Of a stretch of DNA of 60,512 bases, positions 1-42,379 are shown piece by piece. The notes below the pieces were generated by a model. The model did no database searches and was not told the origin of the DNA. It worked only from the letters and a program-made list of their open reading frames with translations. The position numbers were made by a program, and so were the translations under genes. The first letter of the stretch is position 1, and each line of letters starts with the position of its first letter. Source of the stretch: an uncultured Candidatus Berkelbacteria bacterium (GTDB taxonomy: Bacteria > Patescibacteriota > UBA1384 > 2-12-FULL-50-11); assembly GCA_903839975.1 (NCBI GenBank), contig CAIMEH010000027.1, positions 1-60,512 on the forward strand, given 5' to 3'.

Positions 1-74
1 AGAAGGTCCCAAGGGTTTGGCTGTTCGCCAATTAAAAGGGTACGCGAGCTGGGTTCAGAACGTCGCGAGACAGT
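1..74 (+). rRNA. rrl: 23S rRNA, exon upstream of intron (domain V, truncated by window start)
   Basis: Matches conserved 23S PTC sequence GGTCCCAAGGGT...GAGCTGGGTTCAGAACGTCGCGAGACAGT, ending at the base equivalent to E. coli U2604. Confidence 0.97.
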
Positions 75-917
75 AGAATGTGCTGTCTAACGCAGCTAGT
101 TTTAGAACTAGTTGCTCTAACTGCTTGAACAACAGTTAGCTAAATTTGGCTAAATGCTGGAAACTCTGAGTATCTTGTACTACTTGTGTTACGATGGTCC
201 TAATGACCATCTTTCGCAGTGAAAATGTACCAAGTGCAGACAATCAGCAGGAAAGGCCTCAAGGCATTAATCCATGGTATATTTCGGGATTTGTTGACGG
301 CGAAGGAACGTTTCACGTTTCTTTTGCCAGACGCACAGATCTGCCCAAAAAGTGGGCAATAATTCCGGAATTCCACGTATCGCAAGACTTTGCTCGGTCG
401 TCTGTGCTCGAAGAGATTAAAACTTCCTTTGATTGCGGGCAGATTAAGCAAAATCACCGCGGTAAATCTAACGATTCAACCTACGTTTTCGTAGTGCGAA
501 ATCGCCAAGATCTGATAAATAAAATAATTCCATTTTTCGACCGATATCCGATGCGCTCATCAAAGCAGAAAGACTTTTTAGTCTTTGCCCAGATTGTGGC
601 GCTGATGGAGAATGGTTATCACCGCTCGGAAAAGGGCTTCAGGGAAATTACCTGGAAAGCTTTTCAAATGAACGGTGGTGGCAAGTATCGTAAACGAAAG
701 ATGGCGGAAATTCTTGAGGAATCCTCAGAGACTATATGCCAGAATGTGCAGGATTAAAACACGCACATAAGATATAGTCCGGACTGCATGGCGACATGCA
801 GACCCCACAGAAATGTTGGGGCGCCACGAAACTAATTTTGTGGTTTTCTCGGCCGTTGCCGAGACGAAAGGTTACAATCACGTAGCAGTGATCATGTGCC
901 TGGTAAGTAACAGATCG
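75..917 (+). mobile_element. Group I intron in 23S rRNA (insertion equivalent to E. coli 2604/2605)
   Basis: Removal restores GAGACAGT|TCGGTCC. P1: AGACAGT pairs with GCTGTCT (82-88) with U.G at the splice site. Core motifs P (AATGCTGGAAA 153-163), Q (AATCAGCAGG 242-251), R (TCAGAGACTATA 725-736), S (AAGATATAGTCC 769-780). Terminal G917. Confidence 0.93.
194..757 (+). CDS. Intron-encoded single-motif LAGLIDADG homing endonuclease
   Basis: WYISGFVDGEGTF motif, FHVSQ, IIPFFDRYPMRSSKQKDF typical of single-motif LAGLIDADG enzymes; inside the intron. Confidence 0.92.
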   Translation: MVLMTIFRSENVPSADNQQERPQGINPWYISGFVDGEGTFHVSFARRTDLPKKWAIIPEFHVSQDFARSSVLEEIKTSFDCGQIKQNHRGKSNDSTYVFVVRNRQDLINKIIPFFDRYPMRSSKQKDFLVFAQIVALMENGYHRSEKGFREITWKAFQMNGGGKYRKRKMAEILEESSETICQNVQD

Positions 918-1198
<281 letters not shown>

Positions 1199-1330
1199 CT
1201 CTTTTTTGCCAACCTACGTGTTCGCACGTAGATTTCTAGGCAGAAAAGAGAAGACAAAAAATGCTGAGGAAGAGATATCTTCAACTGCGGCTTGGAACAA
1301 CAAAATTTACTTAGAGATAAGAGGTGAATC

Positions 1331-1621: not shown

Positions 1622-1688
1622 ACTATTGGCCGTTTGTGAGAGAAACGGCCCTTCATCTCTGAGTAAATTTATATTTTGTGTTTTGTGC

Positions 1689-2001
1689 GTTGGTGCTTTA
1701 TGCGAGCATCGATGCAATTTGCAGTTTTAATGTTGGTGTCTTATGCGAAATGGGTACACCTCTTCCCATACCGAACAGAGCAGTTAAGCGTTTCAGCACC
1801 TAGGATACTCGAGGCTAACAGCCTCCGGGAAAGCGGGCCGACGCCAACATTAAGTCTACAAATGCACACCTCTTCACATCGCGACGTAACGCAGTGTAGG
1901 AGCGAACGACCGAAGGAAGATACCGAACAGAGCAGTTAAGCGTCTCAGCACCTAGGATACTCGAGGCTAACAGCCTCCGGGAAAGCGGGCCGGCGCCAAC
2001 A
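1689..2001 (+). pseudogene. Outer, interrupted 5S rRNA copy (5' piece 1689-1706; 3' piece 1866-2001 with 44-nt insert 1876-1919) enclosing the intact 5S
   Basis: GTTGGTGCTTTATGCGAG matches the 5S 5' end; 1866-1875 plus 1920-2001 are near-identical to the 5S 3' part; differences from the inner copy are compensatory between the two outer pieces. Confidence 0.85.
1731..1849 (+). rRNA. rrf: 5S rRNA (intact inner copy)
   Basis: 119 nt; helix I TGTTGGTGTC/GACGCCAACA; conserved CCCATACCGAAC and AGTTAAG. Confidence 0.93.
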
Positions 2002-7585: not shown

Positions 7586-7870
7586 ATGGGAGTTGAACAA
7601 GGTGGTCCATCGATGGAAGACATGGGGCTGGATAAAGAAGCTAAGGAAATAAATCCAAAGCCCGTTGAGCTTACGCAAGATCAGAGAGACTTGCTGCTGC
7701 GCGGCGCTGAAGATCCTGATGTACAAAAATTGATCGAAGAGAAAGGGATAGCTGTTGGGGAGGGTAACCAGTTAGTTTCAGTTGACGGCAAAGAGTTCTC
7801 GATCAATACCAGCCCGGAGGATTTTGGCGTAAGGGTCGTTGAAGAAGCAAAAAATCCCAACATTCAGTAA
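7586..7870 (+). CDS. Small acidic hypothetical protein
   Basis: 94 aa, TAAGGAGG SD, own terminator. Confidence 0.8.
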   Translation: MGVEQGGPSMEDMGLDKEAKEINPKPVELTQDQRDLLLRGAEDPDVQKLIEEKGIAVGEGNQLVSVDGKEFSINTSPEDFGVRVVEEAKNPNIQ

Positions 7871-7891
7871 TATAGGTTGTTGGTAATACTA

Positions 7892-7920
7892 GACCGGCCA
7901 TCTTTTTGGCCGGTTTTTTT
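7892..7920 (+). terminator. Intrinsic terminator
   Basis: ACCGGCCA-loop-TGGCCGGT plus T run. Confidence 0.85.
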
Positions 7921-7929
7921 GTTTGCGAC

Positions 7930-8022
7930 TCGTTGTAATCATTACGGACTTCGTTGTATTGACTTGATTTAACAGGTTAAAAACCTGATTTTTTCGTTGT
8001 ACTCACTTTCACTTTCGATGTA
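7930..8022. repeat. Repeat family C copy 2 (uninterrupted)
   Basis: TCG(T/A)TGTA at 7930, 7951, 7994, 8015 flanking CAGGTTAAAAACCTG. Confidence 0.75.
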
Positions 8023-8042
8023 ACGGCTTTTTTGGGATATGG

Positions 8043-8275
8043 AAAGGGCCCGGTCGATACTTCGACTCGGGCCCAAAAGGGGGATTTCGCACAGGATCAT
8101 CGCCTGTCGGTCACTTACATATAAATGAGGTCTTTCCGGGTTAGTGAAGTAACAAGTTTCCCGGCCTCTTAAAGAAGATTTCGCATAGGAATCTTTCCTA
8201 TCGGCTGTTTACCCAAATAATAGGATGCTCCCAGGGATTTGAAACAGCAAGTAACCCCAGGTCCTTTAAACTAAC
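8043..8275 (-). ncRNA. Candidate structured ncRNA with two 28-nt repeated modules
   Basis: Minus-strand promoter TTGACA-17-GATAAT (8310-8282), no ORF, several stems, GC-rich 3' hairpin 8046-8074. Confidence 0.5.
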
Positions 8276-8336
8276 AAAAGAATTATCGCATATTTAATGC
8301 TGTTTGTCAATGGTCTAAGCCTGGTTTTTACCAACC

Positions 8337-8496
8337 GAAAATCCCAGAAATTTCCGTTGGCCGTCAGTTCAATGTTGGAAATTTTGCCAGGATTTTCACC
8401 ACGCCCCTGCGGGAAGCGTGCAGGGTAGGGAGTGTGAGGGTGTAGGGGCTGCCTCGCAATTAAGCCCCTCACCCTCACAAAAAGGGTGCTTGCACA
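8337..8496 (+). repeat. Repeat family A copy 2
   Basis: ~40-bp core identical to 45313 copy; shared AAAGGGTGCTTGCACA end. Confidence 0.9.
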
Positions 8497-8578
8497 TGAA
8501 TCAATGCCTTAATCTCCAAAACATTTGATAGCGACGTAACGGAGTGAGGAGCTTTCAAAGCCCTTAATTTCGTGGGGC

Positions 8579-8653
8579 TTGACAAGCCTTTATTAGAACC
8601 GTAGTGTAACAACAGCAAGTGGAGAGAAGTGGTGAAATGTGGGGAAAAGTGGA
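8579..8653 (+). promoter_or_regulatory. dcw promoter with four MraZ-type boxes
   Basis: TTGACA-17-TAGTGT; GTGG at 8619, 8629, 8639, 8649 (exact 10-bp period), as known for MraZ operators. Confidence 0.8.
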
Positions 8654-8731
8654 TAACCCCTGTGGAAAACACTCAACTGCCTGCGGAGGGAACAATGTTA
8701 GACGCAATATACAAGGAGAAGAACACAACAA

Positions 8732-9163
8732 ATGTTAATCGGGGAGTATCAGCACAGTATCGATACCAAGGGCAGAGTCGCCGTGCCGGCCAAGTTCCGA
8801 ACGGAGCTAGGCTCATCCGCGATTGTTACCAAGGGACTCGACTCGTGCCTGTTCTTATATCCTAAAGGTGAATGGGAAGTAATGGCTAACAAACTCGCAA
8901 ATTTACCGGTGTCCAGTTCTAATGCTCGTTCGTTTGCTCGACTGATGTTGAGCGGAGCGATGGAAGTGGAGATCGATAAACAAGGTCGTGCCTTATTGCC
9001 AAGCTACCTGCGTGAGTACGCAGGTTTAAATGGTGAAACAATAATGGCCGGCGTCTATAATCGTGTCGAAATATGGGATAAAAAAGCGTGGAAAGACTAC
9101 TCGAAGACCGCGGAAGCGAACTCTTCGGCTACGGCAGAAACGCTAACGGAGTGGGAGATATAA
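8732..9163 (+). CDS. mraZ: Transcriptional regulator MraZ
   Basis: MLIGEYQHSIDTKGR, DKQGR, RVEIWD. Confidence 0.96.
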   Translation: MLIGEYQHSIDTKGRVAVPAKFRTELGSSAIVTKGLDSCLFLYPKGEWEVMANKLANLPVSSSNARSFARLMLSGAMEVEIDKQGRALLPSYLREYAGLNGETIMAGVYNRVEIWDKKAWKDYSKTAEANSSATAETLTEWEI

Positions 9164-9321
9164 TGCTAGACAAACTGATTATTGCCTTACTGTCTTTCTT
9201 TCAATCTGTTGCCCGACCGGAACTGGCCTTACAGCCAGCCCGGATTAATACTATTGGTACCAGCGGCGGGGGAATCTCTAAACGGGCTTCCCAAGCTAGG
9301 TTTTTGAAATTTATTTCATGA
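9163..9321 (+). CDS. Putative 52-aa peptide translationally coupled to mraZ
   Basis: TAATG stop/start overlap with mraZ, GGGAG upstream, hydrophobic N-terminus. Confidence 0.45.
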   Translation: MLDKLIIALLSFFQSVARPELALQPARINTIGTSGGGISKRASQARFLKFIS

Positions 9322-16679: not shown

Positions 16680-17795
16680 ATGGAAAATAATAGATTCAAG
16701 TTGAGAAGAAAAATTGACACTAGCATCCCGACTGTCGGGCTAATTTTGTCGCTTTTTGGCTTAGTTATGGTTTTGTCTGCCTCACAATTTTCAGCGGCTG
16801 AAACTTACGGGTCGCCGTACTATTTCTTCGGACGACAGTTAGTTGCATGGTTGCTTGGGCTAGTGGTTTTTTATTATTACTTAAAAATTCCTCTGGAAAA
16901 ATTATACGGTCAACGCTCCTTGTATCTCTATGTGTCGCTTTTTATGCTCGTGATTGTTATTGCTTTCAGTCCGAGAATTGCAGCAGTTCATCGATGGATT
17001 AACCTCGGATTTTTTCAATTTCAACCTGCTGAATTTGCTAAATTATTTCTAACGATATATTTTGCGGGCTGGTTTGCCGCCAAAGCGGAAAATATTCAAA
17101 GTTTTACAAAAGGCGTTTTACCGTTCTTGGCAATTTTGGCGGCAGTGGCTGGCCTAATAATTATCGAGCCAGATATGGGAACTATGTTGGTGGTAGTGGC
17201 GCTATCGATGATTATGTTTTACGCTGCCAAAGCCAAATTATTTCACATACTTGGGATTGTAATCGTCGGTGTTTTGGCAATAGTTTCGTTAATTTATATC
17301 GCCCCATATCGAGCTGCCAGACTCGAGTCTTTCTTGGGAAAGGGTAGTGGAACACAGGATACACTTGGTTCCGCCTATCAAACCAATCAAGCATTGATTG
17401 CGATCGGTAGCGGTGGTTGGTGGGGAGAGGGTTTTGGCCAGGGCTTAAGTAAATATTCGTATCTGCCTGAATCGCACACTGACTCAATTTTTGCCGTTGT
17501 AGCCGAGGAACTTGGCTTTCTTCGGACCTTGTTAGTGGTGCTAGCTTACGTTTTTATCGCCTGGCGCGGTTATCAAATTTCCCAAAAAGCCAATAGTAAA
17601 TTTGCTCAACTTCTTGCGGTGGGATTGTCGTCTGCAATAATCGTACAAGCGCTTATAAATATCGGTGGGCTGCTGAGTGTTATACCACTAACCGGCGTGC
17701 CGCTACCGTTTGTAAGCTACGGTGGCTCGTCTATGGTTGTTTGTTTGGGGATGTTAGGGTTACTTACAAACGTATCTCGAGAAACAGTGGATTAA
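16680..17795 (+). CDS. ftsW: SEDS peptidoglycan polymerase FtsW
   Basis: RWINLG, QPAEFAK, PESHTDSIF, GVPLPFVSYGGSS. Confidence 0.93.
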   Translation: MENNRFKLRRKIDTSIPTVGLILSLFGLVMVLSASQFSAAETYGSPYYFFGRQLVAWLLGLVVFYYYLKIPLEKLYGQRSLYLYVSLFMLVIVIAFSPRIAAVHRWINLGFFQFQPAEFAKLFLTIYFAGWFAAKAENIQSFTKGVLPFLAILAAVAGLIIIEPDMGTMLVVVALSMIMFYAAKAKLFHILGIVIVGVLAIVSLIYIAPYRAARLESFLGKGSGTQDTLGSAYQTNQALIAIGSGGWWGEGFGQGLSKYSYLPESHTDSIFAVVAEELGFLRTLLVVLAYVFIAWRGYQISQKANSKFAQLLAVGLSSAIIVQALINIGGLLSVIPLTGVPLPFVSYGGSSMVVCLGMLGLLTNVSRETVD

Positions 17796-17824
17796 ACTCC
17801 CCGAACCTGTTATATATAAATGAA

Positions 17825-18934
17825 ATGACAGAGAATACGCAAAAACCTGTAATTCTAGTCGGTGGAGGTACCGGTGGCCATATTATGCCGCTAATTGCTA
17901 TCGCCGAAGAGATGAATGCCAGAAAAATTCCATTTATCTACGTTGGTGGTAAAGAGAGTCGGGAGGAGAAAATGGTTAAGGATCTCGGTTGGCAATTTGT
18001 TGGTATCGATGCCGGCAAATGGCGTCGCGAAACTGGACTAAAAAGCATTTGGCTTAATATGGGCGACGGTTTTAAAGTTATTGCCGGATTTTTCCAATCT
18101 GTAAAAATACTTAGGCAATCAAAGGCTGAAGTCGTCTTTAGTAAGGGCGGTTTCGTTGCCTTGCCAATGGTTTATGCTGCCAAGTTTCTAAAAGTTCGTT
18201 TAATTATTCACGAATCAGATGTATATATGGGTCTGACGAACAAGCTTTCCGCCAGATTTGCTGATAAGGTTTTGACGGCATTTGATCCAAAAGTTTTTTC
18301 CAACTCTGATGAGCGTTATATTCAAGTAGGAATTCCGATAAGAAAAAGTTTGCGTGCTGCCGCTGATTTGAAGGCGCCAGCAAAAAATAGACCAGTTCTG
18401 CTGGTAATGGGCGGAATCCAGGGAGCGATGGCGATAAATAATTACATAAAACAAACTCTCCCAGAATTAGTTAAGAAATACGACGTTGTTCACAGTGTAG
18501 GCGAACAAAATTTTGCGCTTTTTAAGACTGCTCGTGAGTCATTGAAGAAAACTGATCAAGCACACTATAAGCCTTATTCGTTTATAGATCGCGAGTTATC
18601 GTATTACTACCAAACAGCAGATCTTATTATTAGTCGAGCAAGTGCCACGGTAATTGCCGAAGGGGCGTTATTCGGCAAAACAATGTATTTAATTCCGCTA
18701 CCGACTTCAGCTGGCAATCACCAGGTACTAAACGCCAAGTACTTAGCCGAGGCCAATGCCGTGGAATATCGCGAACAGTACCAGCTATCTGGAGAAAAAG
18801 TTTTAGCTGATGTGAACGAGCTAATATCTAATCCAGACAAGATGAAGCAGCTCGGCAGCAATTTGCGTAACTACTTTAATGAGAATAAAACTATAGAGAC
18901 AATCATGGAGATAATACTAAATGGCAAAAGCTAA
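17825..18934 (+). CDS. murG: MurG glycosyltransferase
   Basis: GGGTGGH, KGGFVALP, HESD, HQVLNA; start moved to ATG 17825. Confidence 0.93.
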   Translation: MTENTQKPVILVGGGTGGHIMPLIAIAEEMNARKIPFIYVGGKESREEKMVKDLGWQFVGIDAGKWRRETGLKSIWLNMGDGFKVIAGFFQSVKILRQSKAEVVFSKGGFVALPMVYAAKFLKVRLIIHESDVYMGLTNKLSARFADKVLTAFDPKVFSNSDERYIQVGIPIRKSLRAAADLKAPAKNRPVLLVMGGIQGAMAINNYIKQTLPELVKKYDVVHSVGEQNFALFKTARESLKKTDQAHYKPYSFIDRELSYYYQTADLIISRASATVIAEGALFGKTMYLIPLPTSAGNHQVLNAKYLAEANAVEYREQYQLSGEKVLADVNELISNPDKMKQLGSNLRNYFNENKTIETIMEIILNGKS

Positions 18935-36800: not shown

Positions 36801-37469
36801 ATGTGGACACAGATAATTTTCTTTGCGGCGGTGGCACTGGTAATAATATTGCTGCTTCGTCATGCGGCCACTTCCAAACAGGGAATAAGCGCAGTTAGCG
36901 AAGGCGCCAAGGGCGCAGTTTCGGGAATTGGAAAGTTTTTCGGTACTGTTCCAGGTATTTTAGGAAACCTATTACACTCAACTAGGAAATTTGCCCCCAA
37001 AATTCAGCTGCCAAAAAGAACTAATCGCGACCTTTCACCAACACATATTTCTACCGATGAGCGCACAAACCAAGAAGGTCACAAGTTTTGGCAAGAAGAG
37101 GCGATGAGCGAAAAACTTGATCTGAGTTCGCATTTCGAAGAAGGCGAAATATTGTATAAAGCTGGCAAGTTGGATGAGGCGGAGCAGTATTTCTTGAAAG
37201 CCGCTTCTAACAACCCAGGAGACTCTAAAATTTATGCCCGACTCGGGTTGTTGTATTTACAGACAAAAAGTTACTCGGACGCAATCGAATCGTTAAAGGT
37301 GGCGACGAAGCTGGACAAGTACAATCCAAGCCGCCATTACAACCTTTCGTTGGCCTACTGGGGCAATAAAGACATCCAAAAAGCTATCTCTAGTGTTCGT
37401 GAGGCTATAACTCTTGATCCTGTAACGCCGAAATACCGCCAACTGCTCGAGCAATTACTTAACGGCTAA
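36801..37469 (+). CDS. Membrane-anchored TPR protein
   Basis: N-terminal TM, three TPR-like repeats at C-terminus. Confidence 0.85.
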   Translation: MWTQIIFFAAVALVIILLLRHAATSKQGISAVSEGAKGAVSGIGKFFGTVPGILGNLLHSTRKFAPKIQLPKRTNRDLSPTHISTDERTNQEGHKFWQEEAMSEKLDLSSHFEEGEILYKAGKLDEAEQYFLKAASNNPGDSKIYARLGLLYLQTKSYSDAIESLKVATKLDKYNPSRHYNLSLAYWGNKDIQKAISSVREAITLDPVTPKYRQLLEQLLNG

Positions 37470-37477
37470 ATTATTTG

Positions 37478-37561
37478 TGCTGGGGGTAGGATTCGAACCT
37501 ACGAAGACACAAGGCCAGCAGATTTACAGTCTGCCCTCGTTGACCGCTTGAGTACCCCAGC
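37478..37561 (-). tRNA. tRNA-Tyr(GTA)
   Basis: Cloverleaf with long variable arm, loop CTGTAAA. Confidence 0.95.
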
Positions 37562-37574
37562 ATAATACGAACAG

Positions 37575-37646
37575 AGCCACCTGTCGGATTTGGACCGACG
37601 ACCTGCTGTTTACAAAACAGCTGCTCTACCACTGAGCTAAGGTGGC
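37575..37646 (-). tRNA. tRNA-Thr(TGT)
   Basis: Cloverleaf, loop TTTGTAA; T-loop TCCAAAT. Confidence 0.93.
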
Positions 37647-37772
37647 ACACGTTGGTCAAATACTCCGACCTAACTTTACTATTTTACCGCAATTCTGCCT
37701 TAAAAAGAAGAATCTGCTTTGCTTCTAGGGCCTTATAAATTACACTTATTTTTGTTAAAATTGTTCTGTTAT

Positions 37773-37844
<72 letters not shown>

Positions 37845-37892
37845 CAAGAATCGTAGACATAACAGAGAAAAGAAGCTAAAATATAAAAACAG

Positions 37893-38057
37893 ATGGCAAA
37901 GAAAACAGCGCGCGACCGCATCACAATGGAATGTAGTGTTTGCAAAGAGCGCAATTATTACTCAGAAAAGAACAAAACCAACACGCCAACGCGTTTAGAG
38001 TTGAACAGGTTTTGTAAACGTTGCCGAAAAGCCACTCCTCATAAAGAGACTAAATAA
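37893..38057 (+). CDS. rpmG: 50S ribosomal protein L33 (not in ORF track)
   Basis: [28 protein letters not shown]...[21 protein letters not shown]. Confidence 0.95.
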
Positions 38058-38075
38058 TTAATTATTACCAATAAT

Positions 38076-38101
38076 GAAAAGCGGCCAACTGGCCGCTTTT
38101 C
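38076..38101 (+). terminator. Intrinsic terminator after rpmG
   Basis: AAAAGCGGCC-AACT-GGCCGCTTTT. Confidence 0.8.
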
Positions 38102-38153
38102 TTGTCGACTGGTTAGGTAATAATTGGTAAACTATATGAGTTAGTTAACTTAT

Positions 38154-38467
38154 AGGGGCGTAGCTCAGTGGGCCGAAGCGGTAACGAGAACTAAACTGCT
38201 TTAGTTCGAGTCGCTGAGGCGGGCGAAAGTATGTTGCATACTTGCAACACTTAAGTCCCGGAAGAGCATATTAATTTAGTGACAAATGCAGGGGCGTAGC
38301 TCAGTGGTAGAGCATCGGTCTCCAAAACCGAGTGTCGCAGGTTCGATCCCTGTCGCCCCTGCATTTGTCATTCAATAGTCTCCAAAACCGTAGGTCGCAG
38401 GTTAGATAGCGACGTAGCGAAGTGGCGGAGCTATCCGGAACGAAGTGAAGGATCCCTGTCGCCCCTG
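38154..38467 (+). pseudogene. Outer, triply interrupted tRNA-Trp copy enclosing the intact tRNA-Trp
   Basis: Pieces 38154-38171, 38263-38269, 38378-38403 and 38451-38467 are collinear and make up nearly a whole tRNA-Trp(CCA). Confidence 0.85.
38290..38361 (+). tRNA. tRNA-Trp(CCA), intact inner copy
   Basis: Canonical 72-nt cloverleaf, loop CTCCAAA. Confidence 0.96.
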
Positions 38468-38468
38468 C

Positions 38469-38505
38469 AAAAAGAAAGTCGCCCTATTTGGGCGTTTTTC
38501 TTTTT
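38469..38505 (+). terminator. Intrinsic terminator after tRNA-Trp locus
   Basis: CGCCC-TATTT-GGGCG plus T-rich tail. Confidence 0.75.
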
Positions 38506-38575
38506 ACTCCCTGTCTTGTTGACAGTCCGTATTGCCGCCAAGTACAGTAAATATATAACGAAATAAGGAGGGGGA

Positions 38576-39220
38576 GTGGAACAAGATCGAGGTTATCCGG
38601 CTTCACAGCCGACGCCAGCTATGCAAAATCCGCAGGTCGTAAGACCGGCGTATACTCGTGGTCCAGAGAAAGAGGGCATCTCTTCTGTTGGCGAGGTCTC
38701 TCAACCATTAGATACCTTCGGTATGATTATTTTCTTCGTGGTTTTATTACAAGTTGGTTTAATGATTGGTCTTAACCTTTACCAGAAGAGTCGAGTTAAC
38801 ACGATTACGACCGATCTACAGACAAAGCAAGCTCAACTGGCCTCACCAACATATACAGCCTTAAATACCCAAGTAAATGATGTCCTGGCAGGTCAGCAAA
38901 AACTGGAGATTATCTTAAATTCTAAACTCAGTTGGGCTACTTTTTACAGTACGTTAGACGCCGTAACGCCTAAAAATGTCCGTTTAACCTCAATGGCAAT
39001 TAACTCCGACGGAACTTTCAAAGCTGACGGCGAAACAGCCACTTTGTCTAGCTTGGCCGAAGCTATTGCTGCTTGGCGTGATGGCACATCGGCCACACCA
39101 ACACCTTTCTCAGCTATAAATCTTACCAATAACGGCTATACCAGCACTGGTGCAGCTAGACGAGTAACCTTTTCCATAACCGGACAGATCAATTTAAACA
39201 AACTACACGTACAACAATGA
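38576..39220 (+). CDS. PilN-like pilus assembly protein
   Basis: TM, coiled coil, W...L...TPKNVRLTSM pattern; precedes pilO. Confidence 0.75.
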   Translation: MEQDRGYPASQPTPAMQNPQVVRPAYTRGPEKEGISSVGEVSQPLDTFGMIIFFVVLLQVGLMIGLNLYQKSRVNTITTDLQTKQAQLASPTYTALNTQVNDVLAGQQKLEIILNSKLSWATFYSTLDAVTPKNVRLTSMAINSDGTFKADGETATLSSLAEAIAAWRDGTSATPTPFSAINLTNNGYTSTGAARRVTFSITGQINLNKLHVQQ

Positions 39221-39750
39221 ATATACGATCTCACTTAGGAATGTTACTACTGCTGGTTGCGGCTATCGGTTGGTTTGCGGTAGTTAAGCCACAATTAAGC
39301 ACCTATTCCGACGAAACTCTTCAAGTAAAAACCAAAGCAGCCGAATTGGATTCGTACAATCAACGAATTAGCGACCTTCAAACAATTCAAAACGCTGGCA
39401 GCTCGGTTCAAAATGTGTTGAAAGAGATGTACTTAGCGATGCCAAAAACCTCCCAAATTCCAGAAGTTTTGGTGATGATTGAAAGTGTTGCCAGTAACAG
39501 CGGGGTAGTCTTGAACGGAATTAATGTTGGTAGTACTGCTTCGTCAAGCTCAACTACAGCTGGTGCAGTTTCTCAAGTTCCAGTCTCGGTTTCGTTCTCG
39601 GGTAATTTAACAAGTGTTGTCAATTTTCTTAACGCCATTAATAATAATATCCGAACAGCCACAGTTAACAGTCAAACAATGACTTCAGATCAAAGTGGTA
39701 ACTTGTCGGTTACAATGCAGCTCGGGATAGTCTATCAAGGGGGCAACTAA
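39217..39750 (+). CDS. pilO: Type IV pilus assembly protein PilO
   Basis: TM, coiled coil, AMPKTSQIPEVL, VSFSGNLTSVVNFL. Confidence 0.8.
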   Translation: MNIRSHLGMLLLLVAAIGWFAVVKPQLSTYSDETLQVKTKAAELDSYNQRISDLQTIQNAGSSVQNVLKEMYLAMPKTSQIPEVLVMIESVASNSGVVLNGINVGSTASSSSTTAGAVSQVPVSVSFSGNLTSVVNFLNAINNNIRTATVNSQTMTSDQSGNLSVTMQLGIVYQGGN

Positions 39751-39751
39751 T

Positions 39752-40021
39752 ATGAATACAGTTAAACGTTTACAGCTATATATCGGAATTGGACTTCTGG
39801 TAGTTGTGATCGGCCTTTTCTTGTACTCGTTTGTTACAAGTATGCCTTCAGCAACAACTGTCAGCCAAAATGCCAAGCCGTTACCAGCAATACCGGCCGA
39901 TTTATTCTCGAGTAGTAATGCAGTAACTGGAGCTCTGGGTAAATTGAACGTTCCGTTAAATGTGCCCGTAACGGTTGACCCATCAACACTCGGTCGAAGT
40001 AATATATTCCAGAACTTTTAA
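39752..40021 (+). CDS. Small membrane-anchored pilus-associated protein
   Basis: N-terminal TM, C-terminal GRSNIF; between pilO and pilB. Confidence 0.65.
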   Translation: MNTVKRLQLYIGIGLLVVVIGLFLYSFVTSMPSATTVSQNAKPLPAIPADLFSSSNAVTGALGKLNVPLNVPVTVDPSTLGRSNIFQNF

Positions 40022-40024
40022 TGA

Positions 40025-42379
40025 ATGACTCCACAAGTTACTCCGGCACCAGCTCAAAATATTAGTCGGGCGTTTCTTGAATCCTTGATTGCCAAAGGAT
40101 TGATCAAAGATGGTTTTAGACAAGTTTTATCTGGCCGGGATTTACCTGATATTCAGGATTACTTACTTACGAAACAGCTTTTATCCAAAGAACAGATTAA
40201 TCAAGAGCTAGCGGCTTTATTCGGCCTAACATATATTCACCTTACCGGCAGAACAATTCCACCGGCAGCATTATCTATTCTTCCGATAGAAGTGGCCAAA
40301 CAATTTAAGATGGTTCCGTATGATCTACAAGGACTGGATTTATATTTAGCAGTGGCCGAGCCAGCCAATCTCCAGGGCGGAGCGCCCAAAGCTATCGCAG
40401 CTATCAGACAAGAGAAAGGTTTAAGGCTTCATTTAGCAGTTGCGCCAATTGAAGAAATAAACGAAGTTCTTTCAGCCGAAAGCAAACCCGCAACACCGCA
40501 ACCCCCACTCGTAGAAAGCCAACCAGTACCGTCACAGAGTGTTGGCGATTCTGAGAACGTTCAGTCTCTAAATAAAAAAGATCTAATTAACGAAGTTGAA
40601 CCAAGGGATAAGCCTATCGACCTAACCACAATTCAAATACCCAAAGAAACTCTCAATAAAATTCCTTATGAGGTAGCCAAAAAATATAGCATTATTGTTT
40701 TTGGCACCGAGCAGCCAAAGAGCAATCTTGAAGTGCCGATGATAAAAGTGGCAATCGTTAATTTTGCCGATAATCACGTTCGCGAGATTTTGGCCTACAT
40801 CGAACAGCGAAATAAAGTTTTAATCGATCGCTACTCTACTACCAAAGAATCGTTTGAAGCGGCCCTGAAAGGTTACGGACAGCCAGCTATGCCAATTACT
40901 CCAGCACCGAGCCAGCCAATTCCACGACCACCAGAAACTTCGGATACAGCTGTGGCAACTGTTTCAACGCAGTCGAGACCATTAGAAAGCCCAACAGAGG
41001 GTCTAGCTATTTCAGCTGCCGAGATGACCAATAAGCCAACCAGCGTAACAGACGAAACCCCAACAGTAATGTCTAATCAAAACCAGCGAGACTTGGAGGA
41101 CGAGGACATCGTCAAAGATCTGCCAAACAAAATTAATTCCGTTGAAGATTTGGCGGTAGTCTATAAGAGTGGGATTGTGCCACAGATTGTGGCCGCAACT
41201 ATTCTGTTGGGCGTAAAAATGCGTGCCAGCGATGTTCATATTGAAGCCAGCAAAGAGGAAGTAAGAATCCGCTATCGAATCGACGGTATTCTACACGATG
41301 TCATCCGCGTTCCAGCTTTTCTACATGCGCCGTTAATCTCACGTATAAAAATTCTCTCCAAGATGAAGATCGACGAGCAGCGAATACCACAGGATGGCCG
41401 TTTCGATGTTGTGGTAGAGAAGCGCCAAGTTGACGTTCGTGTTTCCACTATGCCAACAGTTCATGGCGAAAAGATTGTAATGCGACTTTTGGATAAAAGT
41501 AGCGGAATAATGTCGCTGGAGCAATTAGGAGTAACTGGCAGTAACTTCGATGTTTTAATTAAAAATGTTAATAAACCTTATGGTGTGATTTTATCAACTG
41601 GTCCAACCGGATCTGGTAAATCCACCACGCTTTACGCTATCCTTACCCGTATTAGCAAGCCAGGCGTAAACATTGTTACGTTGGAAGATCCAGTTGAATA
41701 TGAACTTCCGGGTATCAACCAAGCTCAGGTTAAACCACAGATTGGTTTCACTTTTGCCGAAGGTCTGCGCTCGGTTTTGCGCCAAGATCCAAACATTATT
41801 ATGGTTGGCGAAATTCGTGACCTGGAAACTGCCGCAATGTCTACTCACGCCGCCCTAACTGGTCACCTAGTCCTTTCCACATTGCACACCAACGATGCTT
41901 CTGGCGCCTTGCCTCGTCTTATCGATATGGGCGTGGAACCGTTCCTAATCACATCTTCGATTAACTGCGTTATCGGTCAACGTTTGGTGCGCCGTGTCTG
42001 TGAGAGTTGCCGCGAGCCAGAAGTAATTCCTGAAGCAGTAAAGAATTTTGTTAAGAAAGAGCTGAGCGAGATTCCTTCCGGCCAGCTTAAAGATCTCGAT
42101 TTAGAGAAGATGGTTTTCTATCATGGTCGAGGTTGTCCAAACTGTAATAACGGCTATCAGGGTCGTATCGGTATCTTCGAAGTTCTGCCAATGACCGAGA
42201 ACATCGAAGAGTTGGCAGTTAAAAAAGCCCCAGCTAGCGAACTGCGTCGCCAGGCCATTAAAGATGGCATGATGACTATGGTTCAGGATGGTTTTATTAA
42301 GGCTCTAAAGGGTATTACTACTGTTGACGAGGTTATGCGGGTGACGACTACTTCATACAAAGAGGTGCCCGAGGTCTAG
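40025..42379 (+). CDS. pilB: Pilus assembly ATPase PilB/GspE
   Basis: Two N-terminal GSPII-like domains, ASDVHIE, GPTGSGKST, LRQDPNIIMVGEIRD, tetracysteine motif. Confidence 0.93.
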   Translation: MTPQVTPAPAQNISRAFLESLIAKGLIKDGFRQVLSGRDLPDIQDYLLTKQLLSKEQINQELAALFGLTYIHLTGRTIPPAALSILPIEVAKQFKMVPYDLQGLDLYLAVAEPANLQGGAPKAIAAIRQEKGLRLHLAVAPIEEINEVLSAESKPATPQPPLVESQPVPSQSVGDSENVQSLNKKDLINEVEPRDKPIDLTTIQIPKETLNKIPYEVAKKYSIIVFGTEQPKSNLEVPMIKVAIVNFADNHVREILAYIEQRNKVLIDRYSTTKESFEAALKGYGQPAMPITPAPSQPIPRPPETSDTAVATVSTQSRPLESPTEGLAISAAEMTNKPTSVTDETPTVMSNQNQRDLEDEDIVKDLPNKINSVEDLAVVYKSGIVPQIVAATILLGVKMRASDVHIEASKEEVRIRYRIDGILHDVIRVPAFLHAPLISRIKILSKMKIDEQRIPQDGRFDVVVEKRQVDVRVSTMPTVHGEKIVMRLLDKSSGIMSLEQLGVTGSNFDVLIKNVNKPYGVILSTGPTGSGKSTTLYAILTRISKPGVNIVTLEDPVEYELPGINQAQVKPQIGFTFAEGLRSVLRQDPNIIMVGEIRDLETAAMSTHAALTGHLVLSTLHTNDASGALPRLIDMGVEPFLITSSINCVIGQRLVRRVCESCREPEVIPEAVKNFVKKELSEIPSGQLKDLDLEKMVFYHGRGCPNCNNGYQGRIGIFEVLPMTENIEELAVKKAPASELRRQAIKDGMMTMVQDGFIKALKGITTVDEVMRVTTTSYKEVPEV

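Follow-up and report, generated by a model that had tools for sequence, protein, structure and literature searches.

How can a single-copy gene for an essential tRNA come to lie inside the broken remains of another gene for the same tRNA? This question is raised by the tRNA-Trp locus of an uncultured Candidatus Berkelbacteria bacterium (GTDB lineage Bacteria; Patescibacteriota; UBA1384; 2-12-FULL-50-11), found on contig CAIMEH010000027.1 of assembly GCA_903839975.1. The window analysed here is this one whole contig of 60,512 nucleotides (nt), and it belongs to a genome, called G000 in the following, of 679,703 bases in 34 contigs that is 90% complete. Within the window an intact tRNA-Trp gene (the inner copy) is enclosed by the collinear pieces of a second, triply interrupted tRNA-Trp (the outer copy); we refer to such an arrangement as a nest. 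We propose that the locus is a layered RNA gene, formed by serial, self-targeted gene replacement that was perhaps driven by an endonuclease and made use of promoterless cassettes. To this reading as a whole we give a probability of about 0.58. The replacement by cassettes, taken by itself, we consider likely; the endonuclease step is the weakest part and is put forward as a tentative suggestion. This reading and its rivals alike rest on comparative sequence analysis.

The tRNA-Trp nest consists of the following elements:

38125..38133, plus strand: candidate for an extended -10 box, TGGTAAACT, preceding the outer gene, as read from the sequence
38154..38171, plus strand: outer (displaced, resident) tRNA-Trp, positions 1-18, 18/18 match to the inner gene
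38172..38262, plus strand: A element, a 91-nt insert in the D-loop of the outer copy (covariance model R1, 119.8 bits)
38263..38269, plus strand: outer tRNA-Trp, 3' strand of the D-stem up to position 27, AGAGCAT
38270..38289, plus strand: left flank of the cassette, with the inverted-repeat arm TGACAAATGC at 38280-38289 and one copy of ACAAATGCA
38290..38361, plus strand: inner intact tRNA-Trp(CCA) (ARAGORN; Rfam 70.5 bits)
38362..38377, plus strand: right flank of the cassette; the arm GCATTTGTCA (38361-38370) begins at the discriminator base
38378..38403, plus strand: outer tRNA-Trp, positions ~29-54 (anticodon loop, variable region, 5' strand of the T-stem), 23/26 (88.5%) match to the inner gene
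38404..38450, plus strand: B element, 47 nt long and inserted in the T-loop of the outer copy (E 1.7e-7 with the nhmmer profile built from T-loop inserts)
38451..38468, plus strand: outer tRNA-Trp, positions 56-73, 18/18 match to the inner gene
38480..38504, plus strand: terminator-like hairpin (38480-38494) with a T run, past the outer 3' end

The collinearity of the outer pieces, with their 18/18, 23/26 and 18/18 matches to the inner gene, bears out what an initial annotation, made from the letters of the sequence alone, had described. The third interruption of the outer copy, in the anticodon stem, is the 108-nt block 38270-38377 that houses the intact gene. According to the whole-genome tRNA lists this inner gene is the sole tRNA-Trp among the 41 tRNAs found in G000. 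The variable region of the outer copy, ACCGTAGGTC, has the form that is found in the tRNA-Trp of G003, a genome from another genus. The annotation had also held that the outer pieces cover almost the whole tRNA. When the three inserts were removed in silico by their coordinates, the minimal 69-nt join was not called as a tRNA, whereas two of three 73-nt joins that retain one or two boundary bases were called tRNA-Trp(CCA), the third being called a tRNA of undetermined type. The outer tRNA-Trp is thus almost, but not perfectly, complete.

The gene upstream of the nest, rpmG (Pfam L33), has a terminator-like hairpin of its own (38076-38101), and together with the terminator after the outer 3' end this makes the nest look like one transcription unit. 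The -10-like box at 38125..38133 is presumed to be the promoter of the entire nest, and similar boxes (GGTAAAAT/GGTAGAAT) are found ahead of outer 5' fragments in other nests; a simple consensus promoter scan called no promoter at 38125..38133. The 315-nt region 38154-38468 has a predicted folding energy of -123.8 kcal/mol (z -4.8), in a structure in which the inner cloverleaf sits on an extended stem and the outer ends of the nest still pair with each other. Taken together, the alignments indicate that a whole tRNA-Trp cassette, i.e. a tRNA with stem-forming flanks, was inserted into the anticodon stem of a resident tRNA-Trp, which survives as remnants.

The stem-forming flanks are a distinctive property of these cassettes. 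At the tRNA-Trp nest the arms TGACAAATGC and GCATTTGTCA are exact 10-nt complements that extend the inner acceptor stem, in agreement with the inverted repeat that had been annotated there. For comparison we used two relatives that are each available as a single contig, G001 (768,650 bases), from the same family, and G038, from another family of the same class. Exact complements of at least 10 nt between leader and trailer were found for 2/41 tRNAs of G000 (Trp and Cys) as against 2/1640 mismatched pairs, and for 1/47 tRNAs of G001 (Ile) as against 0/2162; in both genomes they are confined to the central nests, where the inverted repeats continue the acceptor stem or, in the case of 5S rRNA, helix I. 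The sequence of the stem is different in every cassette and its pairing is retained, which suggests a role of the stem as RNA or in single-stranded form. Cassettes of the same genome also share end motifs. There are three copies of ACAAATGCA in the whole of G000, all at the flanks of the Trp and 5S cassettes, so that the recurrence of a Trp-cassette motif in the 5S flank, noticed before, is specific to these two inner genes. Likewise, G038 contains three copies of TTTTGCAACTTT, two of which lie at the right junctions of its Trp and Ile cassettes. Many outer fragments are, moreover, preceded or followed by a reverse-complement copy of themselves, and these fold-back copies resemble the outcome of snap-back repair.

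The same arrangement is present at the 5S rRNA gene of the window, with these elements:

1687..1713, plus strand: 5' part of the outer 5S rRNA, diverged (read by eye against the inner 5S; ends approximate)
1714..1866, plus strand: inserted 5S cassette, with left flank 1714-1731 and right flank 1850-1866, the latter ending in ACAAATGCA
1732..1849, plus strand: inner intact 5S (Rfam 5S, 68.8 bits)
1867..2001, plus strand: 3' part of the outer 5S rRNA, made up of CACCTCTTC (1867-1875), a 44-nt insert (1876-1919) and 1920-2001

The flanks of the 5S cassette are roughly complementary and extend helix I. Outer segment 1920-2001 is 97.6% identical to positions 37-118 of the inner 5S, and the 44-nt insert gives a weak match to the B profile (E 0.7). 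An intact inner 5S, an insert and an outer 3' part thus repeat the layout of the tRNA-Trp nest at an unrelated RNA gene, as the initial annotation had seen. Nests of 5S genes also occur in G013 and G009.

The extent of the phenomenon was assessed by searching each tRNA for exact same-strand matches to its own 300-nt flanks, with mismatched pairs of tRNA and flanks as the control. In G000, 14/41 tRNAs have a self-match of at least 10 nt in their flanks; Val-GAC (with an A element) and Glu-TTC (with a B element), which were recognised through their inserts, raise the total to about 16/41, plus 5S. For self-matches of at least 15 nt, own flanks and mismatched pairs gave 12/41 and 14/1640 in G000, 13/47 and 40/2162 in G001, and 10/43 and 60/1806 in G038, respectively, counts of exact matches that miss diverged fragments and include a few cross-matches of neighbouring genes (Leu-CAG/Leu-GAG and Met in G001). 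Self-fragments therefore exceed chance, and they are present at about a third of the tRNA genes in G000 and its two single-contig relatives. The initial annotation had called for a scan of all tRNA and rRNA genes in this and sister genomes for split self-matches, and these numbers show that such matches occur at further tRNA genes.

The position of the fragments is far from arbitrary. All seven upstream matches of at least 10 nt in G000 derive from tRNA positions 1-20, and of the ten downstream matches nine begin in the T-loop region and one in the anticodon loop. This collinear order holds for G000, G001 and G038, upstream fragments representing the tRNA 5' end and downstream fragments starting from the T-loop or, less often, from the anticodon loop. 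Self-fragments are separated from the intact gene by 40-130 nt, with spacers of 91-108 nt in the Trp nest. A Trp nest with a homologous D-loop insert was also found in G003 and G008, which belong to other genera, and tRNA-Ile(GAT) is broken at the same position of the anticodon loop in G001, G004, G006, G007, G011 and G038, i.e. in five genera and two families. The outer copies show signs of decay: the outer tRNA-Trp of G003 has lost its anticodon loop, and outer fragments at other loci are truncated or diverged. In G000 and its relatives, the comparative evidence thus shows the same process to have affected 5S as well as roughly one tRNA gene in three, some of them several times.

Which of the two copies is the newcomer can be deduced from pairs of related genomes. 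In G000, tRNA-Ile(GAT) is one plain gene with an acceptor of the GCGAGTA type, and in G001 a copy of this GCGAGTA type is split in the anticodon loop, with a 4-nt duplication (GATA), and encloses an intact gene of the GGGCGTA type. Similarly, G017 has one plain tRNA-Trp of the AGGCCCT type, and in its congener G018 an AGGCCCT-type tRNA-Trp is fragmented and encloses an intact gene with 97% identity to the inner copy of G000. These before-and-after pairs show that the outer copy is the resident and the inner copy the incomer. For Val-CAC and Ile-GAT both strands of the inner acceptor stem are foreign, hence the inner gene is a whole foreign allele and not a hybrid. Successive layers can also be recognised. 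The tRNA-Trp of G013 is followed by two successive 3' fragments of different types, and tRNA-Phe and tRNA-Lys of G001 have serial 3' fragments, each with its own terminator in the case of Lys. Together with the repeated events at tRNA-Ile, these layers show that the events have recurred, leading to an onion-like build-up.

G001 has, as a separate observation, a second tRNA with a CCA anticodon (632779-632851), in which an acceptor stem of tRNA-Arg (GCCCTCG) is combined with an anticodon arm and a T-arm that are Trp-like; it is possibly a chimera from recombination between tRNA genes. A tandem array with a 33-nt unit was seen at about 511763-511860 in G038.

The inserts in the outer copies belong to families of their own, for which Rfam has no match, neither to A nor to B. 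The covariance model of the A element (R1) was built from seven copies and used to search 19 genomes of the family, which as kin are not independent of each other. It gave 29 matches in 11 of the 19 genomes, with 0-5 per genome and none in the other eight. An intact tRNA adjoins 22 of these 29 matches, 9-166 nt downstream in 21 cases and immediately upstream in one. For most of these 22 copies the site is the D-loop of a displaced tRNA copy (Trp, Pro, Ala, Thr, Val, Ile, Asn or Arg); one low-scoring match (51.6 bits, in G006) has no recognisable D-arm around it, and the other seven matches are low-scoring (33-56 bits) and located elsewhere. Among the 22 tRNA-linked copies the A element was never found in a sole functional gene, as all of them stand beside an intact tRNA. 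The consensus structure (RNAalifold, seven sequences) has two hairpins, one at each end of the element, and is closed by the D-stem; compensatory changes are seen in 16/32 pairs, and the element always follows the GG of the D-loop. A tree of the 22 A elements is mostly unresolved. The four copies of G008 share a clade with three from G000 and G006 (support 91/81), a weak hint of spread or homogenisation within a genome.

With its nhmmer profile the B family was detected in G001, within T-loops of displaced copies of Glu, Lys, Trp and Ser, and in G000, within those of Trp and Glu; the T-loop inserts of G038 belong to a different family. Several nests, some of them of fresh appearance, do without such inserts. 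The Ile nest of G001 has no insert in either the D- or the T-loop, the Ile nest of G038 has neither A nor the T-loop family of that genome and carries just a short, unclassified insert in the D-arm, and the Trp nest of G008 has an A element and an intact T-loop. Furthermore, G000 and G003 have different T-loop inserts at the same Trp nest. The recognised insert families thus arrived after the nest was formed, or independently of it.

Two observations concern sequences that are related to these inserts. On contig C20 of G000 (17122-18002) the divergent genes for tRNA-Ser(CGA) and tRNA-Ser(GCT) each have a T-loop insert of about 75 nt downstream, followed by their own 3' fragment; the two inserts are nearly identical, which suggests recent copying of the insert between the two loci. 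In the window, a hairpin-rich non-coding stretch at 8390-8620 contains a B-like module (8529-8562), and a similar hairpin with an A-like module occurs in the relatives G001, G004, G008 and G011. No Rfam family matches window positions 7800-9300 or the A-like loci of these relatives.

The genomes were also searched for enzymes that could produce or process nests. No match to the tRNA-splicing endonuclease (PF01974) or to RtcB (PF01139) was found in the 90%-complete G000, in which the controls respond; RNase P RNA was detected. A single tyrosine recombinase is encoded in G000 (a Phage_integrase match at C13:35372-35893), far from the nest loci. Transposases of the Y1/HUH type (PF01797) gave no match in G000, G001, G003 and G008, and two in G018. 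Two reverse transcriptase genes of G000 (about 350 residues; C13:50403-51011 and C23:6217-6828) possibly belong to diversity-generating retroelements, and no reverse transcriptase was found in G001 despite its many nests. The initial annotation had asked for a search for HUH/Y1 transposases, recombinases and reverse transcriptases; no integrase, Y1 transposase, splicing endonuclease or RtcB accounts for the nests.

Candidate endonucleases, which the initial annotation had not anticipated, are the LAGLIDADG ORF in the 23S insert of the window and proteins with a LAGLIDADG fold that are encoded next to tRNA genes. One of the latter is a free-standing open reading frame (ORF) of 217 residues with two LAGLIDADG motifs (G000 C7:4456-5106, minus strand), located directly after the nested tRNA-Leu(CAG), between this gene and tRNA-Leu(GAG). 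When analysed by itself with hmmscan, the ORF scores 28.6 bits with Pfam LAGLIDADG_3 (cut-off 22.5), although PF14528 failed to pick it up in a scan of the genome. G001 does not have this ORF, and there the two Leu genes stand 16 nt apart. The other candidates form a family of about 205-230 residues with an N-terminal helix-turn-helix (HTH) domain followed by a LAGLIDADG-like fold, with 34 matches in 12 of the 19 genomes. Of 30 ORFs that were examined, 23 end between -108 and +30 nt from the start of a tRNA on the same strand, and one of the other seven runs off the end of its contig. Each subgroup of this HTH-LAGLIDADG family is linked to one tRNA species across genera, and the E-G of the LAGLIDADG motif is invariant in eight sequences. 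The model of the protein has a pLDDT (predicted local distance difference test) score of 84, and its best structural matches are LAGLIDADG endonucleases and WhiA, with Z-scores of 7.2-4.1 (7.2, 6.3, 6.3 and 5.6 among them). The members of the family in G000 are:

C2:45232-45909: HTH-LAGLIDADG ORF
C11:13212-13892: HTH-LAGLIDADG ORF
C19:32349-32759: HTH-LAGLIDADG ORF
C17:7990-8247: HTH-LAGLIDADG ORF

We envisage the following course of events. A homing-type endonuclease, for which the LAGLIDADG-fold ORFs abutting tRNA genes are candidates, would make a double-strand break in a conserved part of an RNA gene, and the break would be repaired with incoming DNA that bears a resistant allele. The incoming cassette would have no promoter, so that the nest would be transcribed from the resident promoter up to the terminator past the outer 3' end. 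Its extended stem may insulate the inner tRNA from the look-alike remnants around it and could at the same time offer a double-stranded site for processing; the inner tRNA would then be excised, probably by cleavage of the RNase III type, followed by RNase P and 3' trimming. A nested donor could spread into plain resident genes, with the outer remnants serving as homology arms. The A and B elements would be independent small structured elements that persist only in copies that have already become dispensable.

A number of observations weigh against this proposal. Between G000 and G001, the tRNAs that are nested in either genome are not significantly more diverged than the others (0.832 versus 0.853, p 0.24). 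Stretches of 15-29 nt in outer fragments are frequently 100% identical to the inner gene, also where the lineages differ, which would need ongoing gene conversion or very recent events. Simple homing accounts neither for the fold-back copies nor for how the cassette-specific stems arose. The structure of the A element is kept by compensatory change and is common to several genera, which could mean a function for the host and not a parasite. With regard to the endonuclease step, there is no endonuclease gene inside or beside the Trp or the 5S nest in the window, and the HTH-LAGLIDADG family is absent from G001, which has many nests. At two modules of G000 that consist of such an ORF plus a tRNA (Ala-GGC and Gln-TTG) no outer fragments were found, apart from one 10-nt match 613 nt downstream. 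A Foldseek search against the PDB gave no match for the HTH-LAGLIDADG model, the matches of the wider aligner are modest (Z below 8), and a LAGLIDADG-like fold also occurs in WhiA, a regulator that is not a nuclease.

Since A keeps its structure, the strongest rival explanation is that the nest has been selected by the host as a functional architecture, in which a conserved leader and trailer scaffold made of the outer fragments plus A and B, or else A as an independent small RNA, would control the processing, stability or expression of the inner tRNA. Such a role would fit the compensatory changes in 16/32 pairs of the A hairpins, the occurrence of A at the Trp locus in three genera, the pairing of the outer ends in a precursor that as a whole folds better than shuffled sequences, the identity of outer fragments to the inner gene over 15-29 nt, and the A-like modules in another, unassigned hairpin RNA of relatives. 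However, a scaffold under selection is hard to reconcile with the patchy occurrence of A, which 8 of the 19 family genomes lack, with the fact that a tRNA can be nested in one genome while its counterpart in a close relative is plain (Ile in G000/G001, Trp in G017/G018), with outer copies that decay as in G003 and layers that pile up, and with insert families that vary between bacterial families around inner and outer copies that can be different alleles; we consider it unlikely. The difference between inner and outer alleles is also expected if nests are recombination scars made without a dedicated nuclease, the foreign DNA that these bacteria take up being anchored at tRNA and 5S genes as the sole stretches of sufficient similarity, and homology-facilitated illegitimate recombination leaving partial duplicates. 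The type IV pilus gene cluster that adjoins the Trp locus, the fold-back and irregular junctions that look like repair products, and the nests of G001, where the candidate endonuclease family is lacking, are all in line with this. Scars of that kind would, however, hardly be focused on the D-loop, anticodon loop and T-loop, nor strike tRNA-Ile at the same loop position in five genera and two families, and they would not explain why the cassettes of one genome share end motifs and why inner genes carry matched stems. This origin therefore seems quite unlikely to us.

Of the two mechanisms that the initial annotation had offered, self-targeting RNA-gene cassettes agree with what is found throughout the genome and the lineage; the other, in which A and B first killed the live gene and an intact copy was then added inside or beside it, fares less well. 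It is true that A and B are located exactly at the two most conserved loops, that no A-bearing copy lies more than 166 nt from an intact partner, and that several 3' fragments are separated from the intact gene by just a B element and a short spacer. But there are nests without the recognised A and B families (Ile in G001, and in G038 with its short unclassified D-arm insert), the Trp nest of G008 has A without any T-loop insert, and the T-loop inserts of G000 and G003 differ and are hence later than the nest; moreover, an insert in a single-copy essential gene would need rescue in the same generation. Attack followed by rescue is unlikelier still. Integrase-mediated integration of an island and its later loss, leaving duplications of the attL/attR type, had been named beforehand as a possible source of the 5' and 3' remnants in two independent events. 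According to PMC9897764 (citing Williams 2002), tRNA genes are classic integration sites and 3' fragments may start from the anticodon loop or the T-loop. Here, though, the single tyrosine recombinase is far from the loci, the spacers are as short as 40-130 nt, 5' and middle pieces exist, the inner gene is a whole foreign allele (Val-CAC, Ile) and 5S is hit too, all of which makes this origin most improbable. An artefact of assembly or binning that merged strain variants is, finally, extremely unlikely. The source metagenome has low coverage (depth 2-6); publicly available contigs reproduce 37874-38194 and 38371-38650 with 0 mismatches, and with them both outer junctions, but none of them bridges 38209-38370. 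The same layout nevertheless recurs at the same locus in independent assemblies of three other genera, and in two single-contig genomes, and the inserts are conserved structured families.

Apart from these rivals, a more far-reaching version of the replacement by cassettes deserves mention. A, B and the stem-borne cassettes might represent a mobile-element class unlike those known so far, which would recognise the folded single-stranded DNA of tRNA and 5S genes, or the RNA itself, and enter the three loops without a known transposase, integrase or reverse transcriptase; the cassettes would then act on essential RNA genes as a gene drive that destroys the resident copy, takes over its promoter and brings a processing stem. 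We regard this as doubtful.

Some further mechanisms were considered and rejected. For a DNA transposon of the MITE (miniature inverted-repeat transposable element) type, the cassette repeats vary too much by locus, and a target duplication (GATA) was seen once only. A group I intron in the tRNA is contradicted by the lack of any Rfam intron family at E up to 10 in 37400-38700 and by the size (91 and 47 nt) and position (D- and T-loops) of the inserts. Protein-spliced tRNA introns are contradicted by the lack of PF01974 and PF01139 matches in the 90%-complete G000 and by the redundancy of the interrupted copy, with 22/22 tRNA-linked A elements beside an intact tRNA and no anticodon loop in the outer Trp of G003. 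Integron attC sites, Xer/dif-type and casposon- or CRISPR-like integration were suggested by the palindromic junctions and by the repeat-spacer appearance of the serial 3' fragments, and are without a supporting gene or motif.

The surroundings of the nests can be described briefly. Directly downstream of the Trp nest lies a type IV pilus cluster (39217-42379) with a PilO-like protein and a PilB-type ATPase of 784 residues, and secE-nusG, the usual neighbours of tRNA-Trp, are absent. The PilO-like ORF retrieved no relatives when used as a synteny probe, and a search anchored on PilB gave 80 loci with eight tRNAs inside them, none of which is nested; synteny is thus not kept, and the PilB set is uninformative about the spread of nests. 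Upstream of the 5S nest, the 3' 369 model positions of 23S rRNA are stretched over 1200 bases (window 1-1200) by an insert of about 830 nt that starts near position 75. This insert encodes a LAGLIDADG_1 ORF (281-598, 85.6 bits) and has the appearance of a group I-type intron bearing a homing endonuclease gene. Between 23S and the nested 5S, a spacer of 530 nt contains an ORF of about 96 residues of unknown kind (1331-1621). Among the other structural RNA genes of G000, that of RNase P RNA (C11:12411-13128) is 718 nt long as compared to a model of 367 positions, with about 350 nt inserted in the P12 region, and the tmRNA gene (C5, 12441-12992) is also long, at 552 nt.

Several known systems share properties with the nests. 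In fungal mitochondria, mobile endonuclease ORFs bring along a copy of the end of their host gene, and the displaced end is left as a downstream pseudogene (e.g. atp6 in Allomyces). There, too, an invader breaks an essential gene, supplies a replacement and leaves the old part as a remnant; however, only the end of the gene is replaced and the ORF stays in the insert, whereas here a complete RNA gene with a processing stem is brought in and both old ends remain. The rRNA genes of Patescibacteria are known to contain group I introns with LAGLIDADG ORFs, of which the 23S insert of the window seems to be an example. Such introns, too, are selfish and interrupt structural RNA genes, in the same organisms and with the same endonuclease fold, but they are removed from the RNA and need no replacement copy, and A and B are far too small and have no Rfam match. 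Single-strand transposons of the IS200/IS605 type and their miniature derivatives have hairpins near both ends and insert beside a fixed short target without duplicating it. A has one hairpin at each end and always follows the GG of the D-loop; it is not known to be linked to a transposase, and the Y1 transposase is without a match in G000, G001, G003 and G008.

Phage T4 offers a parallel in SegB, a free-standing homing endonuclease encoded in a tRNA gene cluster that brings about intronless homing (PMC2330249). SegB is reported to cut the homologous region of a genome that lacks its gene, with co-transfer of nearby tRNA alleles. The candidate ORFs described here are similarly free-standing, patchy in distribution and attached to tRNA genes. 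In T4, in contrast, the replacement is clean and occurs by homologous recombination between co-infecting phages, while here the gene is nested in its predecessor on a cellular chromosome, the Trp and 5S nests are without an endonuclease gene, and cutting by the candidate ORFs is putative. Integrative elements in tRNA genes (PMC9897764) share with the nests the partial copies beside an intact one and the breaks in the anticodon loop or T-loop; they differ in that the nests have no integrase at the loci, no island and no hybrid gene, and do have 5' fragments, distances of tens of bases and 5S as a target. Archaea and red algae have multi-intron, split and permuted tRNA genes (PMC4090602, PMC3218864, PMC3978253). 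There, too, the interruptions are at D-loop, anticodon and T-loop positions, up to three per gene, but the interrupted gene is functional and spliced at bulge-helix-bulge motifs, whereas here it is a redundant, decaying copy that is interrupted, and a complete tRNA takes the place of the middle 'intron'.

In none of the systems compared does a complete gene with a processing stem lie within its own remains, as it does here at 5S and at a third of the tRNAs, and a literature search of openly available main texts retrieved no description of nested tRNA or 5S genes or of A or B inserts. We regard the nests as a variant of selfish gene replacement, with a real chance that the mechanism is of a new kind. 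The comparison defines at least two new families of structured elements, A and B, and a family of tRNA-linked proteins with a LAGLIDADG fold. It also implies that horizontal replacement and pseudo-fragments can mislead tRNA annotation and phylogenies of tRNA and rRNA in Patescibacteria. A promoterless RNA gene on a processing stem may, in addition, serve as a portable expression module. If our proposal is correct, essential single-copy RNA genes of these ultrasmall bacteria would be overwritten repeatedly by selfish cassettes, which are rendered harmless by the working copy that they bring. This would account for the strong differences between tRNA alleles of close relatives, and would constitute a concrete and testable natural 'break and replace' drive in bacteria.

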